From the IMG/VR virus record IMGVR_UViG_2939521961_000008: a stretch of 48,101 bases of DNA; one strand, 5' to 3'. This document shows positions 1-43,100 of this stretch, piece after piece. The notes beneath the pieces were generated by a model. That model worked only from the letters and a program-made list of their open reading frames with translations. It was not told the origin of the DNA and made no database searches. The first letter of the stretch is position 1; every line of letters starts with the position of its first letter. A program made the translations under genes and the position numbers. This DNA is from a virus (Duplodnaviria > Heunggongvirae > Uroviricota > Caudoviricetes).

Positions 1-1236
1 CTATGATAACCGCGCATTCAACATGGCTATCTGTTCGTCGTTCATGTCATCAATCCACATACCGTAAATTTCATACACCATCTGCGCAGTTTCATGCCCC
101 ATTTGGCTGGCTATAAATGCCGGGTTCGCTCCTGCCGTCAACAGCCAGCAGGCAAAAGTATGCCGCGTATGGTACGGATTACGGCGGCGAATACCAGCAC
201 GTTTTACTGCTGCATTCCACCTTGCCCCCAAACTGCTTACCGAGTAATAAGGTTTTTGTTTTCCGTTACACACCCTGGGCATGAAAACAAAATGCAGTTT
301 TTGCTTTTCGGTTCTGCCGTACTCCCGATGATAAAAGGTGATTTCGCTTTTGCGATGATGCCCGGTCAGTTTGTATTGCTCCTTCAGTGCTTCAAGAGCA
401 GGCTGCAGTAGTGTTACTGTCCGGATCCCGGCATTTGTTTTTGGGGGACCGAACATATCAAGTATCGTCAGGTTTCTTCTGACATTCACTATTCCCTTTT
501 CGAGATCCACATCCTCCCACGCCAGAGCTGCCAGTTCCCCGTGACGAAGTCCTGAGTAAACTGCAAATTTCCACATGTTCTGGCTCTGTCCTTTTTCACT
601 TTCCATTAATGCATTGAATTCTGTTTTAGATAACGGATCAGGCTTTATTCTGTTTCGCTGTAATTTTTTTACTCCTTCAAATGGTTTGGTTGATATAAAT
701 CCCGACTGATACGCAAAACGTAACAGCGAACAGAGCAGGGCGATATAGTTATCAACTGTGCGCACGGTTCTTCCTTTTTTGTTGGATCTTGGATTATCCA
801 GGTAAAGCGTTTCTCCATGCAGCAGTTCATTCCGGTAGTTTAAGATATCGCTATAACGAATATGTGATATCAGGGTACTTTCACAAATTATTATTCTGAG
901 TGTTTTTAATTGTGATTTCGTTTTCTTCATTGTGTTTGTTGTTAACTCTGTCTCTTTAATTTTTGTCCAGATATCACAAAGCTCTCCGAACGTTTTTATG
1001 ACTCTCGTTGTCACCATTTTTGCCCCAGTGCTGGACTGGGGAAAACGTCTTAAATACTCAAATTCACCGGAGTTTATTTCATGAACTATCAGCGCTCTTA
1101 AATTTCCGGCCTTTTTAATATTACTGTTTGTAATCTCCCAGCCTTTTAATGTTTCCCGACATCGTTTTCCTCGAAACATGAACCAGATGCGAATGTATCT
1201 ACCTCTAATCTCGACACCTGTTGGTAATTTAGACAT
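1..1236 (-). CDS. int: phage tyrosine integrase (Rac IntR-like), 411 aa
   Basis: 411-aa ORF ending at the window edge; C-terminal region RHTFACW...YEIYG fits the tyrosine-recombinase HxxR/Y catalytic pattern; adjacent to excisionase at the prophage end. Confidence 0.9.
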   Translation of the reverse strand: MSKLPTGVEIRGRYIRIWFMFRGKRCRETLKGWEITNSNIKKAGNLRALIVHEINSGEFEYLRRFPQSSTGAKMVTTRVIKTFGELCDIWTKIKETELTTNTMKKTKSQLKTLRIIICESTLISHIRYSDILNYRNELLHGETLYLDNPRSNKKGRTVRTVDNYIALLCSLLRFAYQSGFISTKPFEGVKKLQRNRIKPDPLSKTEFNALMESEKGQSQNMWKFAVYSGLRHGELAALAWEDVDLEKGIVNVRRNLTILDMFGPPKTNAGIRTVTLLQPALEALKEQYKLTGHHRKSEITFYHREYGRTEKQKLHFVFMPRVCNGKQKPYYSVSSLGARWNAAVKRAGIRRRNPYHTRHTFACWLLTAGANPAFIASQMGHETAQMVYEIYGMWIDDMNDEQIAMLNARLS

Positions 1237-1237
1237 A

Positions 1238-1477
1238 TCATGAGTCTTTGATAAACTGATTTATCTTTGGATAGTTGTACCAGATAATCCCTCGTTTGCT
1301 GTCTGGCTTACCTAAAGGAGATACTCGTTTGAAGTGGAAGCCCTCCACCCAACAGTTCTGGCGGTATGCTTCAATTTGTCTGGCCCCCAGACCAGTGCGA
1401 AGCATCAGGCCGTATTCAACCATCCACTCTTCATTAAAGATTACTTGTGCCATCGCATCACCTCTGGCAGGCGCCAA
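1238..1477 (-). CDS. xisR: excisionase-like protein (XisR/YdaQ-like); true start may be the internal Met at 1453
   Basis: 79-aa ORF immediately upstream of int on the same strand; sequence [18 protein letters not shown]... matches my recollection of Rac YdaQ. Confidence 0.7.
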
Positions 1478-1552
1478 TGTTAGACTGAAATTGACGCCCG
1501 ATGTTGATTATTAATAATCAGCTATGAAGTTTTAATTTGAATACAATGCAAT

Positions 1553-1753
1553 TCACGAGGACTGAAGTTTCTCGCAATTAAAATTTATCAGTTTTACTTT
1601 CTGCTCTCTGGAAACGCCTGCTTCTTTTTTACCTGAGAGCATTTTTTCGCATTCTGATTTCGTTAGTTTAGATTTTGAATATCTTGTCCAGTTAGTAGGA
1701 GTGCCACCTTCCTTTTCAATAGTGGCGGTAATTTTATACATGAACACCTCCAT
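1553..1753 (-). CDS. ydaC: small Rac-type protein YdaC-like (start chosen at internal Met MEVFMYK)
   Basis: ORF track 1553..1813; synteny between xis and ralR; overlaps ralR 3' end by about 20 nt. Confidence 0.55.
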   Translation of the reverse strand: MEVFMYKITATIEKEGGTPTNWTRYSKSKLTKSECEKMLSGKKEAGVSREQKVKLINFNCEKLQSS

Positions 1754-1928
1754 TATTATTTCCAGTGGTTCGTTTATTTCATCGTTCGAGTGCTTCTTTT
1801 TCACTTCCACCATAACCGGTTCGGGATTCGCATCCGTTACACTTCGCTCGGTAATATCCTGAAATGGCTTTCACCGTTACTGATGGACAACCACAAAATG
1901 GACATGGTTTAACATTGTCATATCTCAT
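1734..1928 (-). CDS. ralR: restriction alleviation protein RalR/Lar, 64 aa (alternative start at 1940)
   Basis: Hand translation of minus strand gives MRYDNVKPCPFCGCPSVTVKAISGYYRAKCNGCESRTGYGGSEKEALERWNKRTTGNNNGGVHV with CxxC...CxxC; below the 60-aa cutoff of the ORF track. Confidence 0.75.
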
Positions 1929-1983
1929 AATTTTTCTCATAAAAATATTTCAAGTTGGCGGTGCATTACACCGCCAGGCTGAA

Positions 1984-2793
1984 TTATTCCTCTGAATTAT
2001 CGATTACACTGTATTCCCCGGTTAATACAGAGGAATCTGCAGGATCGATTGTCAGTGGTTCCTTTTCATCCATTGATACTGCACGCTGGATCTCAATTGA
2101 TACGGGCAGATATTTGAACAGGCGACGAATAGCCGTTTTCTTTGCCATTTCTTCCCAGTGAGTTACCCACGGCCCGTTATTACCAGCTTTACTCTGGCTG
2201 CGCACCAGCTCAATCTGTTTGCGCGTCATAACTTCAAACTGAGTACCTCCGTCTTTCAGTCTTGCGACAGCATAGACGTGGGTAACAGGGGCATCTTCGT
2301 TTTCTCCTGGGCGGTGTATTAACTTTTCATCAAGGCCAAATTCGAAATTAAACTCGTCACCTTCACGGACAACACGGGCTGACAGGCTGGCGATTTGACC
2401 TGAACGGCGAGCCAGATCAATCATGCCGCGATAGCCAATGATTAGCTGAACGTTTTTTTTACCGCTCTTTTCGTTTTTATTACCAAAAGGCAGTAAATAT
2501 GCATGACCGAGGGCGCTACCGGGCTCAAGTCCGAGCTGTGAACACTGTACGATTGCACTGACAAAACTCATAGTGTCACAGTTTCCTAACGCCGGAACTT
2601 TACGAATTTCTGTGGTGGCGATACGGATCATACGTTCAGCCGTCATATGGCGTGGAAGAGCTGCTGCCAGTTGCTCTTTCATTGATGGCTGGTTAATAAA
2701 ACTAATCACGTCGTTATTTTTAATTGCTGCTGGTGCACGGTTTCCCTGAGTTTTTTGCAGATCGGCTTTTGCGATTGGTGGTTGCTTAGTCAT
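1984..2793 (-). CDS. recT: RecT single-strand annealing recombinase, 269 aa
   Basis: Translation from [25 protein letters not shown]... matches Rac RecT over its length; ORF track extends to 2850 but the Met at 2793 gives the canonical 269 aa. Confidence 0.95.
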
Positions 2794-5386
2794 TTGCATA
2801 TTCCTTAGCCCAGCGGGGCAGTGATAACGTCTTAATAGCTGGCCATTCATCGGTATTGAGGCAGTCAGCCAGGGTTCGCAGATTGCGGTGATATTCCAGC
2901 TGACCTGCCAGTTTTGCTTCTTCGCCCATCATGAAAATTTCAACCGGATAACGTCCGCATTCAATAGTTGTGCTGGCAACCAGAAAAACGAAAGTTGGCT
3001 GCACTCCAAACTGTGCTTCATAACCGTCACTGTAGAATGCATCCTGAACGTGATAGCGGTAGTCGTAATAAGCGGTTTTGAATCGTTGAATATCCGCCGT
3101 AGTTTTCACGTCCATGATCCAGTGAAATTCAGGGATAATTTTGTCCGGACGGCACCGACACAAAATTGCTGTTTCAGGATCTTCCCAGTAAATTGATGAT
3201 TCAGCGTGTCCGGCGCTTTCAACAAGCCATTGCCCCAGCGGCAAAGCCATAACGCTCTGATACATGAGTTCAATTTTCCGGCCTTCTTCGGCAGTGATAA
3301 CCGTTTTTCCTGTGCTTGCGCATTCCCTCAGAAACGCTTTCTCTTCTTCTTTTCCGGAGTTTGTCCGGCGGTTAAATTCAGGTGCTACGATAAAGCGGTT
3401 ACTGAATTCTTCCGGCTCAAGTACCCGGCAGTGGAAAGCGGTTCCTAAATCGAGCGTTTTTGTCTTTGTGGTGTCCACGGGGGCATTTTTACGCCACAAA
3501 TACAGTGCCGGAGTATCAGCAATGTCATCGAGCTGAGACTTACTGACACCGGGACCCGCGTGGTAATTCTCATTCGAAATTCCGTAATAAATACCTGGCT
3601 CTATGTCTTCTACGATTACGGGATCTGCGACTTCGCCAGTTTCATCACTGCAATCGCGATGCGGATCGCTGCCAGCATTCTCATTGTGCGGATGTTCAGC
3701 GCCTTCCATTTCCTCCGGATCATTTTCCTTAGCTTCAACCTGACTCTCTTCATCGAATGTTTCCTGGTATGTTGCGTCGCCCATCACCGCACCACAGTCA
3801 GGGCAGTTATCCCCGCCAGTCTGGCCGCAGGCATTGCAGGCTATTTCCGGTTCCTGTTGCACTATTGGCTCAGGTTGATTCATATCCGGGCTGGTTTTTT
3901 CCGTTTCTGGCTGGTTCTGGTACACACAATCGCGAGTCTGGATCCCCTTTACCCATTTCGGATCGTTCGGGTCGCTAATTCTGTCAACAAATTCACCACG
4001 TGATGCAGCAAGCAATTTATCGGCATCGACAGGATTTTTTGATGGAATGTTTTTCCGGGCTTCATGGAGTTCTGCCCGCAGTTCCTGATATTTCGCATCA
4101 ACAGAATTTACCTGTGACTGAGCATCCAGCGGCTGCGTGTCCTGATGATGTTCAGTTGCGTCCGGTTCCATTGTTTCAGCCTCTCCCTGTTCAACTGCCG
4201 TTGTTCCAGATGGTTGCGGTTTTTCTTCATAATCCTGTTTTCCTTCTTCTGTTACTCGCTGCGGCATCGGGGCAGAGGAGCGACCGCAGGCAATATCCAC
4301 GATTTCCGGATCAGGGTTGGCATGATCGGTTTCAGTCAGTACTTTGTTCAGATATTCAGTGACGTGCGCGGGGATGACCTCGATCCCAATTGGTGCTTCT
4401 TTTACGGACGCAACCACGATGGCGCGGGAATAATCCAGCCCGCCAGGCATGGTGATGAATTTGTCGCGGAAAACAGAAAAGGGCGGTTTATTTTCAGCGA
4501 TAATTTCCTCAATGCGTTTAGCGTGTGCCGGATGAAGGTTATAGATGTCCAGATCCATTGAACGGGCCAGTACGCCAGTGGCTACGTCCCGCGCCAGTGA
4601 CGTCAGATCGTGTACGAAACCTTCGCCGCGATCGGTGAGGTTTCCGCCGCCAGCATTAGCACCGGAAGCCGTGCGAGTGATGTGTGAAACACGATTACCC
4701 TTCATCCACTCTTTTGTCAGCAGTCCTCGATCGGTGTAGTCAGCGTTCAGGTATGCTTCGAAAAAAGCAGTTATCAGTCCCAGGTTTGAATTACCAGGAT
4801 TAGGGAAAACTTTGTCAGTGTCACGAACCAGTTTGTGGAGTTCGCGAATTTCCAGCGGGTCGAGCAGGCTGGTTTTGTGGGAAACAGCCAGGGCAGTAAC
4901 AGCCGGTAGTTCTTCAGCCCGAGCAATGTGTAATGCCTGGAGTCCGTCGCGTGAAACGTGCGTTACCGGTTTTTCGCTGCCGTGTTGAGCAAGCCAACGA
5001 ATGGGCAGTTCCTGGCCAGAAATTGGGAGTAGCATATTCTCCTCAATCTCAGTCATGTCTTCGCCGTTGACGTTGGTATTGCCTTGATAGTGAGCGTTGT
5101 CTGGTGCTGCTCCCGGTTTTAGTTCCCATGTCATGGAGTCTTTGCTGAGTTGATAGCGTTCACTCCAGGTAAAATCGATCTCACCTTCAGCGGGCAGGTC
5201 ATTAACGACAGGAAAATTCGTGGCAACAGCTTTAAAATAGCTGCTCAGTTTTTTACCTGACTTAACGATCAGGTAGTCCAGAGTGGCACAGGTCGATTCA
5301 AAATCGTTGCTTGCCCACAGGACGACGTCAGGTTCACCGGATGATTTTTTCGCTTTCCGTAACAGGAAGAGTGGTTTTGTGCTCAT
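2786..5386 (-). CDS. recE: RecE exonuclease VIII, full-length 866 aa
   Basis: 866-aa [32 protein letters not shown]... with C-terminal nuclease region; 8-bp overlap with recT as in Rac. Confidence 0.95.
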
Positions 5387-5487
5387 TGTTTTTTAACCTC
5401 AACTCAGATTAAAATTCGTTTTGTTCAGTGAATGATCTTGCCGGATACACACTGTTCATAGCCTGCGCCATACGCAGGCTATTTCTT

Positions 5488-5763
5488 TCAGATTTCACCT
5501 TTTAATTTCATTGCAATTAGAGTTGCCAGAAATTCGGCTTTTTTTTCTGCGGGCAGATTCTTTCCGATATGCACCAGGCACATTTTTTTGACACCTTCAT
5601 CAAGTGTTTTTACGTTGCCTGATGGACCATCGATATCAACCACAGTGAATGGGGTTTCTTTATTTTCTGTTTTAATTACGTAGCCAATGCGCTTTCCTTC
5701 CAGATTCACCTCGTGAACAATGTCATCGGTAGTTACAACAGTGGCTTCATAATTGGTAATCAT
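5488..5763 (-). CDS. racC: RacC-like protein, 91 aa
   Basis: Internal Met MITNYEATVVTTDDIVHEVN... of ORF 5488..5811; position upstream of recE. Confidence 0.8.
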   Translation of the reverse strand: MITNYEATVVTTDDIVHEVNLEGKRIGYVIKTENKETPFTVVDIDGPSGNVKTLDEGVKKMCLVHIGKNLPAEKKAEFLATLIAMKLKGEI

Positions 5764-5837
5764 GTTTTTCTCCTTAATTAAGGTTGAGCGAATACCTGCC
5801 ATTTCTGGCATAAATTCAGTTTCGAATAGTCAATTAA

Positions 5838-6008
5838 TTAAAGTTCATGTGCCATCTGGTCTTTTTCGGCACAAGCTTCACTGCAATATTTTCTCGGTTC
5901 GTCTTTTGATAAAATCCCGTGCATGAAGTGAAGCATTCTTTCAATAGCTTTGCTTTCTTCAACGTCTTTTTTGCAAAGGTGGTAAGCACATTTTATTTTC
6001 TTAGTCAT
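5838..6008 (-). CDS. ydaE: YdaE-like small Cys-rich protein, 56 aa
   Basis: Hand translation [56 protein letters not shown]; ATGA start overlap with kilR stop; under 60 aa so absent from the ORF track. Confidence 0.7.
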   Translation of the reverse strand: MTKKIKCAYHLCKKDVEESKAIERMLHFMHGILSKDEPRKYCSEACAEKDQMAHEL

Positions 6009-6229
6009 CACCATGACTCCGCCTTTACAGGTAAACCATCACGACCGAGGAAGACTTTAATCATGCGGTCAGTAATGCATGTTTTTGTGGTCAGGTTACG
6101 AATATATAGTTTTCGCTTTTTAATATTGTTTGCCGAGGCAATATATGTCCGGCCTTCATGAAGAACATAATCGCCAGGAGTCACACACTGACGTGGTATT
6201 TCATCAGTTCCGAAGTGATGTGCAATCAT
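6008..6229 (-). CDS. kilR: KilR cell-division inhibitor, 73 aa
   Basis: [32 protein letters not shown]... from internal Met of ORF 6008..6241; first gene of the leftward operon. Confidence 0.85.
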
Positions 6230-6649
6230 AATTATCTCCATTTTTACAAATGAACTTTGTTGATGCGGTGCCTGGTGCCTCCAGGTGACTGCAACCAGTT
6301 AACAATTACAGTCGGCTTTCCCACCCAAACCAATAAGGACTAACATGACTTTTAACTGTGCCGCGTGCGCTTAGCCGCATTCACCGCATCACAAAATTCA
6401 CTTTAAAAAGGGCGGACATCAGTCGAACTTCAAGAAAAAACTGATGCCGCCAAGACTACACACAGCAGTGTTGTTATTCACAACCGGAGGCGCACTCCCA
6501 CCATTTAAATTTAACAGACAAGACCGACTCTTTATGGATACCGGAAATGCGCCTTCGTGTTGTGCCCGGTTTTATTTCACCACCTCCGGGCTTTGGTGGC
6601 CTCGGCTATACCCCTACAGCAAGAATATTGAATTAATCCAATAAATGGT

Positions 6650-6889
6650 TTAGCTGGTATTTTTGGCAAGCCAGCGACGGGCACCATTTTCGGTTTTAAA
6701 CGTTTTGCTTTTGGTATACGTCATTGCGGTGAACGTGCCGTCCTGGTTTGGAAACACGCCGTACACCAGAGATGCGTTGTTGCCAAGATCGATAGTATCC
6801 ATGCTGACCTCATTTCCCCTTAACGCCGGGGTAGCGGAACAAAAACCTGCTGCATAGTTATTAAAGTTGAACCCTGCCGTCATGTTCAT
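6650..6889 (-). CDS. hypothetical small protein (possible YdaF/YdaG-like); start uncertain
   Basis: 79-aa ORF in the leftward operon between the repressor and kilR; no recognisable domain. Confidence 0.35.
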   Translation of the reverse strand: MNMTAGFNFNNYAAGFCSATPALRGNEVSMDTIDLGNNASLVYGVFPNQDGTFTAMTYTKSKTFKTENGARRWLAKNTS

Positions 6890-7100
6890 ACGCCTCGGGC
6901 TGGCTACTTAACCCCTGACCACTGCCGGGTAACTCGAAGTATTGCCCTGCGTTCTGTGGGGCGGGGTGGGTTGGTAGGTATATAATGTACTTTGTGTTCA
7001 TTGATGTAAAGTACTTTAAGTACATTTTGTGTGTAAAAAAATGAGATGGGATAAAGTGAAGCACAAACCCGGAGGGGGACGCTACCGGATTTATGCTGGT

Positions 7101-7520
7101 TTAAGAGGCTTTTTGTTTTTTCTTTCGTGCTAGCTCTTCGTAAATTGCATTGTACTTCTGTTTTTTCTCCTCAAGAGTTTTTAAAAGTTCATCTGTCTCA
7201 CTGTCAGGGAGCTCGTCCAGAAGGTCAATGATGATTTTTTGTCTTGGATTTAACTCCTGATAGAAACGTACCTGTCCACTTTCTTCTGTATCCTCTCCCA
7301 AAAGATAGGTTGGTGTTGTTCCAATGAGTGTTGCTAATTCCCTTAATTTCTCTCGGCGAGGAATTGTTTCGCCATTAAACCATTTGCTAACCGCTTTTGG
7401 TGTTAATTTCATTCGACGGGCAATTTCTGCCTGCCTTCCATGTTGTTCATAACCAGCGTTTTCACAGGCTAGCGCAAGCCTACTGGCGAACTCTTTACGC
7501 GCTTTATCTTCATGAACCAT
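7101..7520 (-). CDS. prophage repressor, XRE-family HTH without a peptidase domain (RacR/DicA-like architecture)
   Basis: 139 aa; HTH segment GRQAEIARRMKLTPKAVSKWFNGE; divergently arranged with a Cro-like gene across a 79-bp operator region. Confidence 0.7.
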   Translation of the reverse strand: MVHEDKARKEFASRLALACENAGYEQHGRQAEIARRMKLTPKAVSKWFNGETIPRREKLRELATLIGTTPTYLLGEDTEESGQVRFYQELNPRQKIIIDLLDELPDSETDELLKTLEEKKQKYNAIYEELARKKKQKAS

Positions 7521-7599
7521 AAGTTCAATGATATTCGCTCTTGAATGTACTGTCAGTTCTGTTATAGCATGTACTCAAAGTTCACATTGTGAGGGTGAT

Positions 7600-7854
7600 A
7601 TGAACCAGAAAACACTTGAAGATGTAATCAAAACTGTTCGCGTTTCTGTTGTGGCCGACGTTTGTGGTGTCAGCCAAAGAGCAATCTACAAATGGATGGA
7701 TAACGGAAAATTGCCTCGCACAGAATATACCGGCGAAACAAATTACGCTGAAAAAATCGCTCATGCATCAAACGGATTATTTTCTGCTGATGTAATTTTA
7801 ACTATTGGCAGAAATAAAACTACTACGAAAAAGCTGATGGGAGTTGATTCATGA
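7600..7854 (+). CDS. ydaS: YdaS-like Cro-type HTH protein
   Basis: Start at MNQKTLEDVIK with upstream GAGGGTGA; HTH CGVSQRAIYKWMDNGKLP; divergent from repressor. Confidence 0.7.
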   Translation: MNQKTLEDVIKTVRVSVVADVCGVSQRAIYKWMDNGKLPRTEYTGETNYAEKIAHASNGLFSADVILTIGRNKTTTKKLMGVDS

Positions 7855-8273
7855 AAATCAAGCATGAGCACATCGAGTCAGTGTTGTTAGCCCTGGCAGC
7901 CGAAAAAGGGCAGGCATGGGTAGCCAATGCCATTACTGAAGAATATCTGCGCCAGGGGGGCGGCGAATTGCCCCTGGTACCAGGCAAGGACTGGAATAAT
8001 CAGCAGAATATCTATCACCGTTGGTTGAAAGGTGAAACGAAAACGCAAAGAGAAAAAATTCAGAAGCTGATCCCAGCAATTCTGGCAATCCTTCCGCGCG
8101 AGCTGCGTCACCGACTCTGCATCTTCGATACCCTGGAACGCCGTGCATTACTGGCGGCGCAGGAAGCGTTAAGTACGGCAATTGATGCGCATGATGATGC
8201 AGTCCAAGCCGTTTACCGGAAAGCGCATTTCAGCGGCGGCGGGTCTTCCGACGATTCTGTCATTGTTCATTAA
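7851..8273 (+). CDS. ydaT: YdaT-like protein (CII-like position), 140 aa
   Basis: ATGA overlap with ydaS stop; 140 aa as in Rac YdaT. Confidence 0.65.
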   Translation: MKIKHEHIESVLLALAAEKGQAWVANAITEEYLRQGGGELPLVPGKDWNNQQNIYHRWLKGETKTQREKIQKLIPAILAILPRELRHRLCIFDTLERRALLAAQEALSTAIDAHDDAVQAVYRKAHFSGGGSSDDSVIVH

Positions 8274-8285
8274 GCAAAAGTTTCC

Positions 8286-8776
8286 ATGCTGTTTGTGCTT
8301 ATTCTAAGCCACCGGGCAGCATCATACGGGGCAATTATGGCCGCATTACCATACATGCAACTGTACATAGCTGATTACCTGGCTGACACCATGCATTTGT
8401 CAGCAGAGGAGCATGGTGCGTATTTGTTGCTGATGTTCAATTACTGGCAAACAGGAAAGCCAATACCTAAAAACAGGCTGGCAAAAATTGCCCGTCTGAC
8501 TAACGAGCGATGGGCTGATGTTGAACCATCCTTGCAGGAGTTTTTTTGCGATAACGGCGAGGAATGGGTGCATCTTCGGATTGAGGAAGATCTGGCATCA
8601 GTCAGGGAAAAATTAACCAAAAAATCAGCCGCAGGAAAAGCATCTGTTCAGGCCAGAAGAAGCAGAAAGGAAGCAGATGTTCAAACAAAACAAGAGAGAA
8701 ATTTAACAGGTGTTCAAACAGATGTTGAAGTGGTGTTTGAACATGATGTCAACACAAAGGCAACTAATAAAGATAC
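8286..8776 (+). pseudogene. ydaU: ydaU-like (DUF1376) replication gene, N-terminal part, truncated by IS insertion
   Basis: ORF reads MAALPYMQLYIADYLADTMHLSAEEHGAYLLLMFNYWQTGKPIP... and runs directly into the IS inverted repeat at 8777. Confidence 0.6.
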
Positions 8777-8818
8777 TGAACCGCCCCGGGTTTCCTGGAG
8801 AGTATTTTATCTGTGAAC

Positions 8819-9709
8819 TCAGGCTGCCAGATCATTATTTCCGATGGAAGCATAATAAGCTTTTTCTGCTTCTGCCGGAGGAATATGGCCCAGCCTTTCC
8901 AGCAATCGTCGATTGTTATACCAGTCCACCCACGTTAGTGTGGCCAGTTCCACTTCTGTCCGGTTTTTCCAGCTATTACGGTGTATTACCTCCGCTTTGT
9001 AAAGACCATTGATGCTCTCAGCCATCGCGTTGTCATACGAGTCGCCAGTACTCCCTGTTGATGCCAGTAATCCGGCTTCCTTAAGCCGCTGCGTGTAGGC
9101 CAGCGATACATACTGAGAACCTTTATCACTGTGATGGATTGTGCCGGACGGCCGACGGGCCCACAACGCCTGCTCCAGTGCATCCAGCACGAATGTTGTT
9201 TCCATGGATGATGAGACCTGCCATCCCACGATGTATCCGGCGAACACATCAATGATGAACGCCACATAAACGAAGCCCTGCCATGTGCTTACCCAGGTAA
9301 AATCAGCCACCCACAACTGGTCTGGACGTTCTGCCACGAACTGACGGTTTACGCGGTCGCATGCGGCAACGGCTTTCCGGCTGACGGTAGTGCGGACCTT
9401 TTTACCCCGGAGAACACCGGCAAGTCCCATAACTGCCATGAGACGTGCCACAGTGCATCTGGCCACTCTGATACCTTCCCGTAACAACTGACGCCAGACT
9501 TTACGCACACCGTATACCTGGTGATTTTCATCGTATACGCGCTGTATCTCTTTCTTCAGCCAGTCATCGTGCTGCGCACGGGCACTGCGTTTATCCGGAT
9601 GATGTCGCTGTTGCTGACAATGGTAATACGTTGACGGGGCAATATGCAGTTCGCTGCATACCGGTCCGACCCCGTACTGCTCACGCAGCTTATCCAGCAG
9701 TGGCATCAT
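8819..9709 (-). CDS. IS3-family transposase OrfB (DDE integrase domain), 296 aa
   Basis: DDE-type catalytic core (…WVADFTW…, …HSDKGSQY…, …DNAMAES…); overlaps orfA end. Confidence 0.9.
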
Positions 9710-10032
9710 TTTTTCCAGAGGCGGTCGAACTCCGCCTTCGCAAAATAAGCGGAAGCCTGGCGAAGGATATCGTTACTGCGGCGCAGTTCACGATTTTCAC
9801 GTTCCAGCTCTTTCAGACGCTGACGTTCAGCACTGGTGAGCCCACCATCACCGCCCCCGGTATCCCGCTCATGCTGGCGAACCCAGACACGCAGAGTCTC
9901 CGGCGTACAGCCAATCTTTGGGGCAATGGAACAAATTGCCGCCCACTGTGAGTCATATTCATCCTGACTTTCCAGAACCATACGAATCGCCCGCTGACGG
10001 ACTTCGGGGGAAAAACGAGTATTTTTAGTCAT
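9706..10032 (-). CDS. IS3-family transposase OrfA (HTH), 108 aa
   Basis: [22 protein letters not shown]... with leucine-zipper-like C-terminus; ends in GGAAAAAATGA where orfB begins (frameshift window). Confidence 0.9.
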
Positions 10033-10095
10033 CCTGTTTACCTCTTTCTCAGGGAGTTTAGTCTCCAGGATTTCCGGGGCGGTTCATACAGATAA

Positions 10096-10455
10096 AGATC
10101 TAAAAACAGATCCCCCCCTAAATCCCCCCGGGGGAATCGAGGTGTCAAAAAGTTTGACCCTCTGGATATTGCTTTGCCGAACTGGATTTCTGTCTCGCTT
10201 TGGCGTGAGTGGGTTGAATTTCGCCAGGCATTGCGAAAACCGATTCGAACGGAGCAGGGCGCTAACGGGGCGATACGGGAGCTGGAAAAATTCCGCCAGC
10301 AGGGTTTTTCACCTGAGCAGGTGATTCGACACAGCATCGCCAATGAATACCAGGGCTTGTTCGCGCCGAAAGGTGTTCGACCTGAGACGTTACTCCGACA
10401 GGTTAACACCGTCTCGTTACCGGATAGTGCGATCCCGCCAGGCTTCAGGGGGTAA
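10096..10455 (+). pseudogene. ydaU: ydaU-like replication gene, C-terminal part downstream of the IS (different frame from the N-terminal part)
   Basis: Open frame from 10096 giving ...VKKFDPLDIALPNWISVSLWREWVEFRQALRKPIRTEQGANGAIRELEKFRQQGF...; no start codon of its own except TTG. Confidence 0.5.
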
Positions 10456-10461
10456 CTGACC

Positions 10462-11208
10462 ATGAAAAATATTGCGACAGGCGACGTTCTTGAACGTATC
10501 CGCAGACTGGCCCCGTCACATGTAACCGCGCCATTCAAGACGGTAGCGGAGTGGCGCGAGTGGCAACTTTCCGAAGGCCAGAAACGTTGTGAGGAGATCA
10601 ACCGTCAGAATCGTCAGTTGCGGGTGGAAAAAATTCTGAATCGCTCTGGCATCCAGCCATTGCACCGCAAATGCTCGTTTTCGAATTACCAGGTGCAGAA
10701 CGAAGCGCAGCGATACGCGTTGAGTCAGGCGAAATCCATCGCTGATGAACTGATGACCGGGTGTACAAATTTTGCGTTCAGCGGAAAACCTGGTACCGGG
10801 AAGAACCACTTAGCGGCAGCTATCGGGAATCGCCTGCTGAAAGACGGTCAGACAGTGATTGTGGTTACCGTGGCTGATGTTATGAGTGCCCTGCACGCCA
10901 GCTATGACGATGGGCAGTCAGGCGAAAAATTTTTGCGGGAACTATGCGAAGTGGATCTGCTGGTTCTTGATGAAATTGGCATTCAGCGCGAGACGAAAAA
11001 CGAGCAGGTGGTGCTGCACCAGATTGTTGATCGCCGGACAGCGTCGATGCGCAGCGTGGGGATGCTGACAAACCTGAACTATGAGGCCATGAAAACATTG
11101 CTCGGCGAGCGGATTATGGATCGCATGACCATGAACGGCGGGCGATGGGTGAATTTTAACTGGGAGAGCTGGCGTCCGAATGTCGTCCAGCCAGGAATTG
11201 AGAAGTAA
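10462..11208 (+). CDS. ydaV: DnaC-like helicase loader (AAA+ ATPase), 248 aa
   Basis: Walker [16 protein letters not shown] and Walker B LLVLDEIG motifs; follows the ydaU-like gene. Confidence 0.85.
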
Positions 11209-15863: not shown

Positions 15864-15890
15864 AACCCGCTTCGGCGGGTTTTGTTTTTT
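15864..15890 (+). terminator. rho-independent terminator after hok
   Basis: AACCCGC-TTCG-GCGGGTT hairpin followed by TTTGTTTTTT. Confidence 0.6.
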
Positions 15891-16242: not shown

Positions 16243-17292
16243 GTGCGGGTATTACTTCGACCTGTTCTGGTACCGGAACTCGGGCTGGTGATCGTTAAGC
16301 CGGGCCGTGAATCCATGCCGGTATTCCACAATACCCGGGTACTGGTGGAGCCGGAACCGAAAAGCATGCGTAATCTGCCGTCCGGGGTCGTTCCTGCCGT
16401 TCGCCAGCCGCTGGCGGAGGATAAATCACTGCTGCCATTTTTCAGCGATGAGCGGGTGATTCGTGCAGCTGGCGGCGCTGGTGCACTGTCTGACTGGTTA
16501 TTACGTCACGTGAAATCCTGCCAGTGGCCACACGGCGATTATCATCACAGCGAAACCGTTATTCACAGTTACGGTGCTGGCGCAATGGTGTTGTGCTGGC
16601 ACTGCGACAACCAGCTGCGCGACCAGACCTCCGAATCACTTGAGCAACTTACTCAACAAAATCTGACAGCCTGGATGATTGACGTCATACGCCATGTAAT
16701 GAATGGCACGCAGGAGCGGGAATTATCGCTGGCTGAATTATCCTGGTGGGCAGTCTGCAATCAGGTGGTGGACGCATTACCTGAGGCAGTATCGCGTCGC
16801 TCTCTGGGATTACCGGCGGAAAAAATCCGCTCCGTATACCGTGAAAGCGACATCATACCGGGAGAACAGACCGCCACCAGCATACTGAAGCAGCGCACAA
16901 AAAATATTGCGCTACCGCCTCACACCCACCAGCAACAGAACCCACCACAGGAAAAGACGGTGGTCAGCATTGCCGTTGATCCGGAGTCTCCGGAATCCTT
17001 CATGAAACGACCTAAACGTCGCCGCTGGGTAAATGAGAAATACACACGCTGGGTAAAGACACAGCCGTGTGCGTGTTGTGGTAAGCCAGCGGACGATCCT
17101 CATCATCTGATTGGTCATGGTCAGGGTGGAATGGGAACAAAATCCCACGATATTTTCACGCTACCGCTGTGTCGGGAGCATCACAACGAGCTTCATGCGG
17201 ATCCGCTGGCGTTCGAAGAAAAGCATGGTTCCCAGGTTGATTTAATTTTTCGTTTTCTTGATCACGCCTTTGCAACCGGCGTGCTCGGGTAA
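16243..17292 (+). CDS. ydfU: DUF968-family protein (YdfU-like) with C-terminal Cys/His motif
   Basis: 349 aa; GTG start after GGAGG; C-terminal CACCGKPADDPHHLIGHGQGGMGTKSHDIFTLPLCREHHNELH. Confidence 0.7.
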   Translation: MRVLLRPVLVPELGLVIVKPGRESMPVFHNTRVLVEPEPKSMRNLPSGVVPAVRQPLAEDKSLLPFFSDERVIRAAGGAGALSDWLLRHVKSCQWPHGDYHHSETVIHSYGAGAMVLCWHCDNQLRDQTSESLEQLTQQNLTAWMIDVIRHVMNGTQERELSLAELSWWAVCNQVVDALPEAVSRRSLGLPAEKIRSVYRESDIIPGEQTATSILKQRTKNIALPPHTHQQQNPPQEKTVVSIAVDPESPESFMKRPKRRRWVNEKYTRWVKTQPCACCGKPADDPHHLIGHGQGGMGTKSHDIFTLPLCREHHNELHADPLAFEEKHGSQVDLIFRFLDHAFATGVLG

Positions 17293-38628: not shown

Positions 38629-39372
38629 ATGACACAGACAGAATCAGCGATTCTGGCGCATGCCCGGCGGTGTGCGCCTGCGGAGTCGTGCGGCTTCGTG
38701 ATAAGCACGCCGGAGGGGGAGTGGTATATCCCTTGTGTGAATATTTCTGCAGAGCCGGAGGCGTATTTTCGTATCGCACCGGAAGACTGGCTGCGGGCAG
38801 AGATGCAGGGGGAGATTGTGGCACTGGTCCACAGTCATCCCGGTGGGCTGCCCTGGCTGAGCGAGGCCGACCGGCGGCTGCAGATAAAAAGTGCACTGTC
38901 CTGGTGGCTGGTCTGCCGGGGGGAAATTCATAAATTCCGCTGTGTGCCACATCTGACAGGACGGCGCTTTGAGCACGGGGTGACGGACTGTTACACGCTG
39001 TTCCGGGATGCATACCATCTGGCGGGAATTGATATGCCGGATTTTGAGCGTGAGGATGACTGGTGGCGCAACGGTCAGAACCTTTACCTGGACAATATGG
39101 CGGTCACCGGCTTTTACCGGGTGCCCCTGTCCTCTGCACAGGCGGGCGATATCCTGCTGTGCTGCTTTGGCGCATCGGTGGCCAATCATGCCGCCATTTA
39201 CTGCGGCAACGGTGAACTGCTTCACCATCTGCCTGAACAACTGAGTAAACGGGAGAGGTATTCCGAAAAATGGCAACGACGAACGCATTCTGTCTGGCGT
39301 CACCGCCACTGGCACGCATCTGCCTTCACGGGGATTTGCAACGATTTGGCCGCCGCCTCAGCCTGTATGTGA
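38629..39372 (+). CDS. K: tail tip assembly protein K (JAMM/MPN motif HSHPGG...SEAD plus NlpC/P60-like C-terminal half)
   Basis: 247-aa ORF; JAMM-like motif; overlaps I by about 100 nt as in lambda. Confidence 0.9.
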   Translation: MTQTESAILAHARRCAPAESCGFVISTPEGEWYIPCVNISAEPEAYFRIAPEDWLRAEMQGEIVALVHSHPGGLPWLSEADRRLQIKSALSWWLVCRGEIHKFRCVPHLTGRRFEHGVTDCYTLFRDAYHLAGIDMPDFEREDDWWRNGQNLYLDNMAVTGFYRVPLSSAQAGDILLCCFGASVANHAAIYCGNGELLHHLPEQLSKRERYSEKWQRRTHSVWRHRHWHASAFTGICNDLAAASACM

Positions 39373-40195: not shown

Positions 40196-43100
40196 GTGGG
40201 TAAAGGTGGCGGCAGGGCGCACACGCCGGTAGAGGCAAAGGACAATCTTAAGTCCACGCAGATGATGAGCGTGATTGACGCCATTGGTGAAGGGCCGATT
40301 GAAGGTCCGGTGAAGGGGCTGCAGAGTATTCTGGTGAACAAAACCCCGCTGACGGACACGGACGGTAATCCTGTGATACATGGTGTGACAGCGGTCTGGC
40401 GCGCCGGGGAGCAGGAGCAGACACCGCCGGAAGGTTTTGAGTCATCCGGCTCTGAAACCGCACTGGGCGTGGAAGTGACGAAGGCAAAGCCGGTGACGCG
40501 CACCATTACGTCCGCGAACATTGACCGCCTGCGGGTCACCTTCGGGGTGCAGTCACTGGTGCAGACCACCTCACAGGGTGACCGTAACCCGGCATCCGTC
40601 CGCCTGCTGATTCAGCTGCAGCGTAACGGTAACTGGGTGACGGAAAAGGATGTCACCATTAACGGCAAGACCACCTCACAGTTCCTCGCTTCGGTGATTC
40701 TGGATAATCTGCCTCCCCGCCCCTTTAACATCCGGATGGTCAGGGAGACGGCGGACAGCACCACGGACCAGCTGCAGAATAAGACGCTCTGGTCGTCATA
40801 CACCGAAATCATCGATGTGAAACAGTGCTACCCGAACACGGCGATTGTGGGGCTGCAGGTGGATGCGGAGCAGTTTGGCGGTCAGCAGATGACGGTGAAC
40901 TACCATATCCGCGGTCGCATCATCCAGGTACCGTCAAACTATGACCCGGAAAAACGCACGTACAGCGGCATCTGGGACGGCAGCCTGAAACCGGCATACA
41001 GCAACAACCCGGCCTGGTGCCTGTGGGACATGCTGACTCACCCGCGCTACGGCATGGGAAAACGTCTGGGGGCGGCAGACGTGGACAAATGGGCGCTGTA
41101 TGCCATTGCGCAGTACTGCGACCAGACGGTCCCGGATGGTTTCGGGGGCACAGAGCCGCGGATGACCTTTAATGCGTACCTGTCACAACAGCGTAAGGCG
41201 TGGGACGTTCTCAGTGATTTCTGCTCGGCGATGCGCTGTATGCCGGTATGGAACGGCCAGACGCTGACGTTCGTTCAGGACCGCCCGTCGGATGTGGTGT
41301 GGCCGTACACCAACTGCGATGTGGTGGTGGATGATAACGGCGTGGGGTTTCGCTACAGCTTCAGCGCCCTGAAGGACCGCCACACGGCGGTGGAGGTGAA
41401 TTACACCGACCCGCAGAACGGCTGGCAGACCTCCACGGAACTGGTGGAAGACCCGGAAGCCATACTGCGCTACGGGCGCAACCTGCTGAAGATGGATGCG
41501 TTCGGTTGCACCAGTCGCGGTCAGGCCCACCGTGCCGGGCTGTGGGTGATAAAGACCGGACTGCTGGAAACGCAGACGGTGGATTTCACGCTCGGGTCAC
41601 AGGGGCTGCGTCACACACCCGGTGACATTATTGAAATCTGTGATAACGACTATGCCGGGACCATGACCGGCGGACGTATCCTGTCCATCGATGCCGCCAG
41701 CCGCACCCTGACACTGGACCGTGAGGTGACCCTGCCGGAGACAGGTGCCGCCACGGTGAACCTGATTAACGGCAGCGGTAAGCCGGTGAGCGTGGCCATC
41801 ACTGCACACCCCGCGCCGGACCGGATACAGGTCAGCACCCTGCCTGATGGTGTGGAGACATACGGTGTATGGGGACTCTCCCTGCCGTCACTGCGTCGTC
41901 GCCTGTTCCGCTGTGTCTCCATCCGGGAAAACACGGACGGCACCTTTGCCATCACGGCGGTGCAGCACGTACCGGAAAAGGAAGCCATCGTGGATAACGG
42001 GGCCAGCTTTGAGCCGCAGTCAGGCACCCTGAACAGCGTCATCCCTCCGGCAGTGCAGCACCTGACGGTGGAGGTGAGCGCAGCTGACGGTCAGTATCTG
42101 GCGCAGGCGAAATGGGACACGCCGAAGGTGGTGAAGGGCGTGAGCTTTATGCTTCGCCTGACCGTGGTCGCGGATGACGGCAGTGAGCGGCTGGTCAGCA
42201 CGGCCCGGACGACGGAAACCACATACCGCTTCACGCAACTGGCGCCGGGGAACTACAGGCTGACAGTCCGGGCGGTAAATGCGTGGGGGCAGCAGGGCGA
42301 TCCGGCGTCGGTATCGTTCCGGATTGCCGCACCGGCAGCGCCGTCACAGATTGAGCTGACACCGGGCTATTTTCAGATAACAGCGGTCCCGCGTCTTGCG
42401 GTGTATGACCCGACGGTACAGTTTGAGTTCTGGTTTTCGGAAACGCGGATTACCGATATCAGGCAGGTTGAAACCACAGCCCGCTACCTTGGCACGGGGC
42501 TGTACTGGATAGCCGCCAGTATCAATATCAAACCGGGCCATGATTATTACTTTTATATCCGCAGTGTGAACACCGTTGGCAAATCGGCATTTGTGGAGGC
42601 TGTTGGCCAGCCGAGTGATGATGCATCCGGCTATCTGGATTTTTTCAAAGGAGAGATAGGGAAAACCCATCTGGCTCAGGAGTTGTGGACTCAGATTGAT
42701 AACGGTCAGCTTGCGCCTGACCTGGCGGAAATCAGAACGTCCATCACGGATGTCAGTAATGAAATCACGCAGACCGTCAATAAGAAACTGGAAGACCAGA
42801 GTGCAGCGATCCAGCAGATACAGAAGGTTCAGGTTGATACAAATAATAATCTGAACAGCATGTGGGCTGTGAAGCTGCAACAGATGAAGGACGGACGCCT
42901 TTATATTGCGGGTATCGGTGCCGGTATTGAGAATACGCCAGCAGGAATGCAGAGTCAGGTGCTGCTGGCGGCAGACAGGATTGCGATGATTAATCCTGCG
43001 AATGGCAACACAAAGCCGATGTTTGTTGGTCAGGGCGATCAGATATTCATGAACGACGTGTTCCTGAAACGCCTGACGGCTCCCACCATTACCAGCGGCG

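Follow-up and report, generated by a model that had tools for sequence, protein, structure and literature searches.

We analyzed a 48,101-nt stretch of Caudoviricetes DNA (IMG/VR record IMGVR_UViG_2939521961_000008; hereafter the window, in whose coordinates all positions are given), which is a full-length Rac-type lambdoid prophage lying beside ttcA, of the Escherichia coli O26:H11 type and nearly identical to the prophage of strain 11368. Its genes run in the order intR, xisR, ralR, recT, recE, racC, kilR, a racR-like repressor gene, a ydaS-like gene, ydaT, ydaU, and ydaV, followed by Q, the lysis genes, terminase, head and tail genes, J, lom, a tail fiber gene, and three DUF1076 genes. The ydaU gene is split by a complete insertion sequence (IS) of the IS629 type (Table 1), whose insertion point follows codon 164 and falls between the regions for the two domains of the encoded protein; the 3′ half of the gene is left without a promoter. 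The 5′ reading frame stays open to position 8816, adding 12 IS-encoded residues to the 164 native ones before a stop codon is reached; the true start of ydaU is likely the ATG at 8337.

Intact YdaU is a protein of 285 aa. Its DUF1376 domain (PF07120; residues 22 to 104; 2.7e-26) is kept in the 5′ fragment found in the window, and its C-terminal half matches phrog_678, annotated as "replication initiation O-like" (9e-25; residues 112 to 259), with a further weak match of the C-terminal domain to DnaT (E 0.003). YdaU also matches phrog_6451, "primosomal protein," at 1e-123. Residues 173 to 285 are 87% identical to the products of coliphage genes annotated as "replication protein O," whose N-terminal domain is unrelated, and a YdaU that is 99.6% identical is encoded by the isolated phage vB_EcoS-683R6. 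A search of the accessible literature for initiator activity of YdaU, meaning origin binding or helicase loading, found no report. Immediately downstream, ydaV encodes an intact DnaC-like helicase loader with no amino acid differences from that of 11368, and it has a Shine-Dalgarno sequence of its own, GGGGG, located inside the 3′ end of ydaU. The same order of ydaU and loader gene is found in Pseudomonas phages, and the gene downstream of the Bordetella phage homolog is annotated only as hypothetical.

The empty site is defined by comparison with the prophage of O26:H11 strain 11368. Positions 1 to 8776 of the window are collinear with that prophage with one mismatch; over positions 10086 to 48101 collinearity is likewise preserved, with 67 mismatches and one indel. 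In uninterrupted ydaU alleles the sequences flanking the IS are adjacent and contain one TAC; since both arms of the window align collinearly with 11368 around that one TAC, the flanks are contiguous in the intact homolog. Excising the IS together with one TAC reproduces the 11368 sequence exactly, except for one base, and the ydaU gene reconstructed in this way measures 806 bp from its second ATG, compared with 807 bp in intact alleles. The reconstructed empty-site ydaU has matches over at least 80% of its length in 715 genomes; of the 40 genomes among the matches listed, 39 have one that is 807 bp long and bears the annotation "YdaU family protein."

At the left junction the window reads AATAAAGATAC and then TGAACCGCCCCGGG at the start of the IS; at the right junction the IS ends in CCGGGGCGGTTCA and is followed by TACAGATAAAGATC. 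The terminal inverted repeats begin with TGAACCGCCCCGG at either end and match at all of the first 13 positions and at 22 of 25 overall. The length of the element lies within the approximately 1.2 to 1.55 kb characteristic of the IS3 family, and its ends form the imperfect TG...CA repeats of that family, whose members transpose by copy-out/paste-in. TAC stands on both sides of the IS and once in empty sites, a short target-site duplication in the 3- to 4-bp range of IS3-family elements. Two overlapping open reading frames (ORFs) on the minus strand, orfA with a helix-turn-helix (HTH) domain and orfB with the DDE integrase core (rve), are joined by a predicted −1 frameshift, as expected of the family from sequence. 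OrfB scores 312 bits against NCBIfam transpos_IS3 (cutoff 160), and RF01497, the ALIL pseudoknot, is matched with E 2e-32 (121.5 bits, where the gathering score is 50). Inside this ALIL match lie two candidate sites for a −1 slip, TTTTG (9745..9741) and A6 (9714..9709), and a slip at either one is predicted to yield an OrfAB fusion of 404 aa, the length given by RefSeq for the transposase at this site. Because the inverted repeats, both ORFs, the ALIL element, and the 404-aa OrfAB are all present, the IS copy is complete and looks functional.

Over positions 1 to 1310 the IS shares 99.8% identity with a copy in Stx1 phage BP-4795, whose genes were named IS629 OrfA/OrfB by the depositors, and a full-length copy that is 100% identical is present in an unrelated record. 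End-to-end alignment of all 1310 bp at 99.8 to 100% with copies in unrelated contexts is not a product of chance. Identity falls to 96.1% with the copy in O157:H7 strain F3113, which RefSeq assigns to the "IS1203 family," and to 93.7% with the copy in O145 strain RM9154-C1, a third type. Rump et al. 2011 (PMC3271280) described three IS629 subtypes lying 4 to 5% apart (IS1203-like, Shigella-like, and O26:H11-like), target duplications of 3 to 4 bp without a strict target consensus, and, in four O157:H7 genomes, location of 62% of the copies in prophages. Named through the BP-4795 copy and these published subtypes, the element is identified by its sequence as the O26-type isoform of IS629. It resembles IS629 at large (isoforms IS1203 and IS3411; enterohemorrhagic E. 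coli [EHEC] O157, O26, O111, and O103, and Shigella) in its 1310-bp length, TG...CA repeats, 3-bp duplication, predicted −1 frameshift linking orfA (HTH) to orfB (DDE), ALIL element, and prophage location, and it differs from the O157/IS1203 type, to which it is ~96% identical. It is because of this divergence that RefSeq labels the product merely as "IS3 family transposase."

These results bear on an earlier description of the window made without database searches, here called the sequence-only reading. It had placed a complete IS3-family element with imperfect terminal repeats and a TAC duplication at 8774 to 10089; length, ends, ORFs, and ALIL all agree, and the coordinates are exact, comprising the 1310-bp IS and one TAC on each side. 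Its assignment of the element to IS629 is upheld by the full-length 99.8% match to the BP-4795 element called IS629, with the caveat that the copy is the O26-type isoform. Pfam, PHROG, and NCBIfam matches likewise agree with its view that the split gene is a ydaU-like DUF1376 gene adjoining that of a DnaC-like loader (ydaV). It had named noncontiguity of the flanks in an uninterrupted ydaU homolog as evidence that would speak against an insertion, and the sequences flanking 8776/10090 proved to be adjacent. It had also described the int/xis, lysis, and morphogenesis genes as intact, and all 61 other prophage coding sequences that are intact in O26:H11 11368 are also open in the window, with at most four amino acid changes each.

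Table 1. Positions of the IS629-type element, the two parts of ydaU, and associated features in the window
Feature	Position	Strand	Basis
Complete IS629-type element (IS3 family, IS629/IS1203/IS3411 group, O26-type isoform)	8777..10086	−	1310 bp, ends, full-length matches
Target-site duplication TAC, left copy	8774..8776		Single TAC in 11368 empty site
Target-site duplication TAC, right copy	10087..10089		Window sequence
Terminal inverted repeat, orfB end (IRR), TGAACCGCCCCGGGTTTCCTGGAGA	8777..8801		Inverted-repeat alignment
Terminal inverted repeat, orfA end (IRL)	10062..10086		Inverted-repeat alignment
orfB, 296 aa, DDE integrase-core part of transposase	8819..9709	−	Pfam rve 2.4e-26 and HTH_21
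orfA, 108 aa, HTH DNA-binding part of transposase	9706..10032	−	Pfam HTH_Tnp_1 2.4e-12
ALIL frameshift-stimulating pseudoknot	9635..9751	−	Rfam RF01497
ydaU 5′ part, DUF1376 and linker, 164 native codons	8286..8776	+	ORF list, Pfam, 164-aa prefix in common with intact YdaU
ydaU 3′ part, O-like/DnaT-like C-terminal domain, out of phase	10090..10455	+	Reconstructed empty-site translation, PHROG, DnaT
ydaV, DnaC-like helicase loader, intact	10462..11208	+	Pfam IstB_IS21, NCBIfam PRK12377 504 bits, PHROG DnaC-like helicase loader
Iteron-like repeats, predicted origin element	8638..8744		Repeat search on intact allele
A+T-rich tract, left half, IS target region	8745..8776		Composition profile of intact allele
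Second poly-C tract, C6 (C7 in intact alleles), frame-breaking 1-nt difference	10124..10129		13-locus tract table

The reading frame of ydaU and the poly-C tracts

The one base by which the reconstructed empty site departs from 11368 lies in the second of two poly-C tracts downstream of the IS. Intact alleles read C7-TAAAT-C7-G5, and the window reads C7-TAAAT-C6-G5; the first tract (10112 to 10118) is an unchanged C7, and the C6 of the second is the only indel relative to 11368 in 46.8 kb. With C7 in the second tract, the frame reads DTDKDLKTDPPLNPPRGNRGVKKFDPLDIALPNW. The combination C7/C7 was found in strains 11368, K-12, RM10386, 6629, F3113, and 2015C-4944 and in two further loci, L019 and L020, and the combination C7/C6 was found in the window, E2865, 2014C-3057, and one assembly of 97-3250 (CP027599). 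In RM10386, 6629, 2015C-4944, L019, and L020, the same IS occupies the same junction and the two halves of ydaU are in phase. The sequence-only reading had noticed that the downstream frame is out of phase once the IS and one TAC are removed, a discrepancy that is real (806 against 807 bp), and it had offered as explanations either an IS boundary set off by one or an additional frameshift in the homopolymer tract. Removal of the IS and one TAC restores the 11368 sequence except for a missing C, and so the frame problem is a homopolymer change, C6 instead of C7 in the second poly-C run, in agreement with the latter of these alternatives.

A boundary or duplication mis-set by one base is very improbable as the source of the apparent frame problem. 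The placement of the boundary is ambiguous in a trivial sense, in that ATAC occurs at 8773 to 8776 and the terminal A of the IS followed by TAC also makes ATAC, at 10086 to 10089. Against this, every way of parsing the junctions leaves the window with a net 1313 bp more than the empty site, and the missing C is not at the IS boundary but 35 to 40 bp farther downstream. On the alignment with 11368 and the C7 alleles that are in phase with the same IS junction (RM10386, 6629, L019, and L020 among them), we rejected the off-by-one boundary.

The out-of-phase 3′ half then represents either a slippage mutation in a dead gene or a homopolymer assembly error. If the C6 were an artifact of assembly or sequencing, for which we see an even chance, the real DNA would have C7, and removal of the IS would restore an in-frame gene. 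Strain 97-3250 has been assembled both with C6 (CP027599, carrying a "frameshifted" note) and with C7 (CP074773, with intact YdaU), and other assemblies in the CP027xxx range, like CP027599, shorten nearby G/C runs, with C6/C6 in 2012C-4606 and, in 2015C-4944, G4 in place of a G5 of the IS. The poly-C runs of the intact sequence are the only G/C homopolymers of at least 7 nt in the 48-kb window and are therefore its hardest positions to call, and C7 is the state of most alleles that carry the same IS. An artifact is harder to reconcile with an assembly that, because it has no other indel relative to 11368 in 46.8 kb and no difference in any of 21 A/T runs of 7 to 8 nt, does not look generally error prone, and with the occurrence of the same C6 in E2865 (100% identical over 9.7 kb) and 2014C-3057 (no flank differences), which could reflect common descent. 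To a genuine deletion by strand slippage we give a little less than an even chance; it would have occurred later than the IS insertion, or unconnected with it, in a gene that had already been inactivated, and precise excision could then not restore ydaU. Three IS-bearing assemblies made in different laboratories show the same C7/C6 combination, with identical flanks, which favors such a deletion, as does its being the sole indel in the window relative to 11368; long homopolymers are prone to slippage, and a dead gene is free to decay. The points that favor an artifact count against it, above all the conflicting readings of the single strain 97-3250, C6 in one assembly and C7 in the other. Since the tract is read differently in the two assemblies of that strain, the frameshift of the 3′ half should not be overinterpreted, and "frameshifted" pseudogene notes at such poly-C/G tracts call for read-level confirmation. 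In either case the C6 has no bearing on function, because ydaU is already split. In 2015C-4944, the change from G5 to G4 lies in orfA of the IS and shortens the annotated transposase.

Origin-like layout of the ydaU linker and probable consequences for the prophage

In its intact form (8638 to 8776 joined to 10090 to 10134), the linker between the two YdaU domains is encoded by a stretch that contains, in this order, a set of repeats, a low-GC tract with a GATC, and the two poly-C runs. The repeats comprise four direct copies of ~14 nt (AAnCAGnTGTTSAA) at 8638, 8671, 8704, and 8716, three of them spaced 33 bp apart, and one inverted copy at 8734 to 8744. Exact copies of TGTTCAAACA occur only three times in the 48-kb window, at 8678, 8711, and 8734 (the last on the minus strand), all within 66 bp (8678 to 8743), and a looser 11-mer pattern has 12 matches compared with 3.6 expected, a number that none of 100 shuffles reached. 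The 40-bp window with the lowest GC content in ydaU comes directly after the repeats, spans the insertion point, and holds the GATC: when the tract at 8745 to 8776 is rejoined with 10090 to 10111, it contains the minimum of 25% GC in a profile of 25 to 30%, and the 40 bp around the IS target have 27.5% GC. The uninterrupted O26 allele differs from ydaU of the K-12 Rac prophage by 1 nt in 858, and K-12 Rac and the O26 prophage have in common the repeats, the C7/C7/G5 tract, and the racR-like, ydaS, ydaT, and ydaV neighbors. K-12 Rac is truncated and its ydaU is whole, whereas in the window ydaU is split by the IS and the surrounding prophage retains its full length, Q, lysis, head, and tail genes included.

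Arrays with a GTTSAAC core were found at relative position 0.43 to 0.51 in four genes, one from E. coli, two from Pseudomonas phages, and one from a Bordetella phage, the phage proteins being 32 to 47% identical to YdaU. These phage homologs keep the order of GTTSAAC-core repeats, an A-rich low-GC tract, and a proline-coding C-rich segment, and among them a GATC is present only in the two Pseudomonas ones. In the one coliphage gene examined that has a swapped N-terminal domain, there are no GTTSAA cores, and GTTAC/GTAAC repeats stand in their place. By sequence the locus shows features expected of a lambda-type origin, namely a repeat array in the linker with an adjacent A+T-rich tract, and, in this small sample of four plus one genes, repeats that are conserved with the N-terminal domain and change when that domain is swapped. 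The curated K-12 record has no feature inside ydaU, and nothing usable on the mapped position of the Rac oriJ or on YdaU function was found in the accessible literature.

The lambda origin, ori-lambda, sits within gene O and has the same layout of repeats followed by an A+T-rich tract. On account of this layout, a replication origin, presumably the Rac oriJ, is likely located in the ydaU linker. YdaU and its downstream gene resemble lambda O, ori-lambda, and P in having a two-domain initiator with a swappable and presumably origin-specific N-terminal domain and a putative loader-recruiting C-terminal domain, the repeat array and then the A+T-rich tract in the interdomain linker, and the loader gene directly downstream. 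They differ from them in that the N-terminal domain is DUF1376, the loader is DnaC-like rather than P, the repeats are short (10 to 14 nt with a GTTSAA core), and the origin is a predicted one. If confirmed, this predicted architecture would point to a definite DNA target for DUF1376/YdaU proteins and to a role that experiments could probe; it is the only part of the present findings that may merit follow-up, and its wider value would be modest.

The insertion separates the DUF1376 N-terminal domain, presumed to bind the origin, from the O/DnaT-like C-terminal domain, and it puts 1.3 kb of antisense sequence in the path from the early-right promoter region to the intact ydaV. No functional initiator would be made. 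The prophage origin would probably suffer damage in cis as well, since the point of insertion is midway along the lowest-GC tract, just past the iteron-like repeats. Since there would be no full-length initiator, the prophage would presumably be unable to replicate on its own after induction, with its integrase/excisionase, Q, lysis, head, and tail genes remaining intact. It is reasonable to infer, with the sequence-only reading, that replication of the prophage is crippled, and we consider it highly probable that an IS629-type insertion splits the linker of the ydaU initiator, that the prophage has presumably lost its own replication, and that the C6 is a separate change irrelevant to function.

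Several observations weigh against this interpretation. Both the loss of replication and the assignment of the origin are drawn from sequence alone, the latter from its architecture. O26 genomes contain a second ydaU-like locus (two places per record), which might supply initiator in trans. As to effects on the downstream gene, ydaV retains a ribosome-binding site of its own, and scans of the ydaU strand revealed no convincing terminator within the IS (7 terminator-like sites compared with 4.9 expected in the region); for these reasons polarity on ydaV is not established, and in promoter and terminator scans directed at such polarity the counts did not exceed those in shuffled sequences.

It is unlikely, in our estimate, that the insertion is of little consequence because initiator or replication is provided in trans by a coresident lambdoid prophage or because IEE promotes IS629 excision in a subpopulation. 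The second ydaU-like locus of O26 genomes presumably belongs to another prophage, all other genes of the window prophage are intact, and IEE, a promoter of IS629 excision, has been reported in O26:H11 genomes (PMC9943667). Other points count against it: if the origin lies in the ydaU linker, its damage in cis could not be complemented; the second YdaU copy may have another specificity; and with a genuine C6 the frame would stay broken even after excision. Loss of autonomous replication through the split of ydaU is the interpretation that we retain.

As such, the insertion is an ordinary prophage-disabling event that is already annotated in RefSeq. IS629 is a common mobile element of Shiga toxin E. 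coli, its disabling of lambdoid prophages is well documented in EHEC genomes, and about 25 complete genomes carry this particular insertion. Asadulghani et al. are said to have described, in 2009, IS629-inactivated lambdoid prophages as part of the defective prophage pool of EHEC O157. The window prophage would resemble these in having IS629 in an early/replication gene of an otherwise complete lambdoid prophage, and it differs from them in its O26-type host lineage and in being a different prophage. The last 2 kb of the window (46101 to 48101) hold the three DUF1076 genes in tandem at the right end of the prophage, the last gene ending exactly at the end of the window; these presumably belong to the NleG-type effector family. 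They would be cargo of a prophage probably unable to replicate, and the insertion predicts that this prophage, carrying presumed NleG-type effectors, is locked in the chromosome unless helped.

Occurrence of the insertion, its derivatives, and neighboring insertions

At least 80% of the junction query is covered in 27 of 5,426 complete genomes. The same IS lies at the same site in 23 of these; 2014C-3057 has an internally converted IS at the same site, UTAK-23 has the right junction only, and F3113 and RM9154-C1 carry an IS at other sites, so that 25 of the 27 carry an IS at this junction. The insertion is usable as a lineage marker within O26:H11-type strains. The complete genome nearest to the window is that of strain 6629 (99.9%), and none in the complete-genome collection is identical at 100%. 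RefSeq marks the split YdaU in all four of the IS-bearing records examined. In E2865, which is identical to the window across the ydaU/IS locus, its labels are "YdaU family protein, missing C-terminus," "IS3 family transposase, programmed frameshift," and "frameshifted; missing N-terminus." The truncated YdaU product is also recorded in 93 blocks of a large assembly collection, including gut metagenomes.

The identity of E2865 with the window over 9.7 kb covers the early region, including the IS and the C6. Over window positions 15886 to 48101 the late regions differ: E2865 has genes for tRNA-Ile and tRNA-Arg, another Q/lysis module, and structural genes that are 87 to 97% identical. The difference between the two is prophage mosaicism arising by recombination downstream of ~15.9 kb.

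In 2014C-3057 (IS at 1678 to 2987 of the locus segment), IS positions 268 to 1242 contain 67 differences from the window copy and are of the RM9154 type, and the two ends (1 to 267 and 1243 to 1310) and both flanks are identical to those of the window. An independent second insertion at the same TAC was considered and rejected on the identity of ends and flanks around a purely internal patch; the arrangement is best explained as a mosaic that descends from the same insertion and was then altered by gene conversion between IS629 isoforms. Other records diverge at the junctions themselves. In three draft or metagenome contigs, the IS sequence breaks off within orfA, at window-equivalent position 9816, and beyond it come unrelated DNA and a gene for an MFS transporter; in UTAK-23 the right junction is retained with ydfJ on the other side. 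These derivatives point to IS-associated deletions or inversions at the locus.

The two genomes with an IS elsewhere in the gene bear on whether IS629 elements favor this part of ydaU. In O157:H7 F3113 (IS at 1632 to 2941 of the locus segment), the insertion is its own, with the target-site duplication AAG at window-equivalent 8728 to 8730, between two of the repeats and 46 bp upstream of the O26 site. In O145 RM9154-C1 (IS at 1501 to 2810), the IS junction falls at window-equivalent 10108|10109, just before GATCCCCCCC; the 5′ two-thirds of ydaU are missing and there is no target-site duplication, which looks like an IS-associated deletion. Together with the TAC of the O26 site, these make three target choices within 68 bp, the three ISs being isoforms 94 to 96% identical and all antisense to ydaU. 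The junction search was able to join insertions up to ~1.35 kb away and found none elsewhere in ydaT, ydaU, or ydaV. The clustering of three events in a stretch of ~70 bp is suggestive, and we regard it as doubtful that this origin-like core is a preferred regional target of the IS629 family rather than the site of random hits. There are only three events, their detection required flanks similar to this allele, and selection for loss of prophage replication could enrich insertions in ydaU generally; a lack of strict target consensus was the finding of Rump et al. (PMC3271280), and the target matches the IS ends at 7 positions compared with 5.1 expected. On the last of these counts, targeting of the IS911 kind, in which the target resembles the IS ends, was rejected.

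A broader proposal would unite these observations: that the ydaU linker is an oriJ-type origin conserved from coliphages to Pseudomonas and Bordetella phages, that the IS, by cutting the A+T-rich unwinding tract in two, disables this origin in cis and also the initiator in trans, and that the linker is a recurrent, orientation-biased IS629 target in O26, O157, and O145 strains. Taken as a whole, it is possible, well short of probable, and we advance it tentatively.

Two further observations concern the rest of the prophage. The product of ydaT (7851 to 8273), directly upstream of ydaU, is assigned by RefSeq and Pfam to the "toxin YdaT family," yet it matches a PHROG annotated as "CII-like transcriptional activator" (3e-37), and the gene occupies the position of lambda cII. 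The 67 substitutions relative to 11368 are clustered at 16429 to 16578, 38675 to 38868, 41678 to 41796, and 44652 to 44865; a stretch of 150 bp in the DUF968 gene holds 22 of them, and the other clusters are in K, J, and the tail fiber gene. These clusters look like short recombination patches rather than the result of point mutation.

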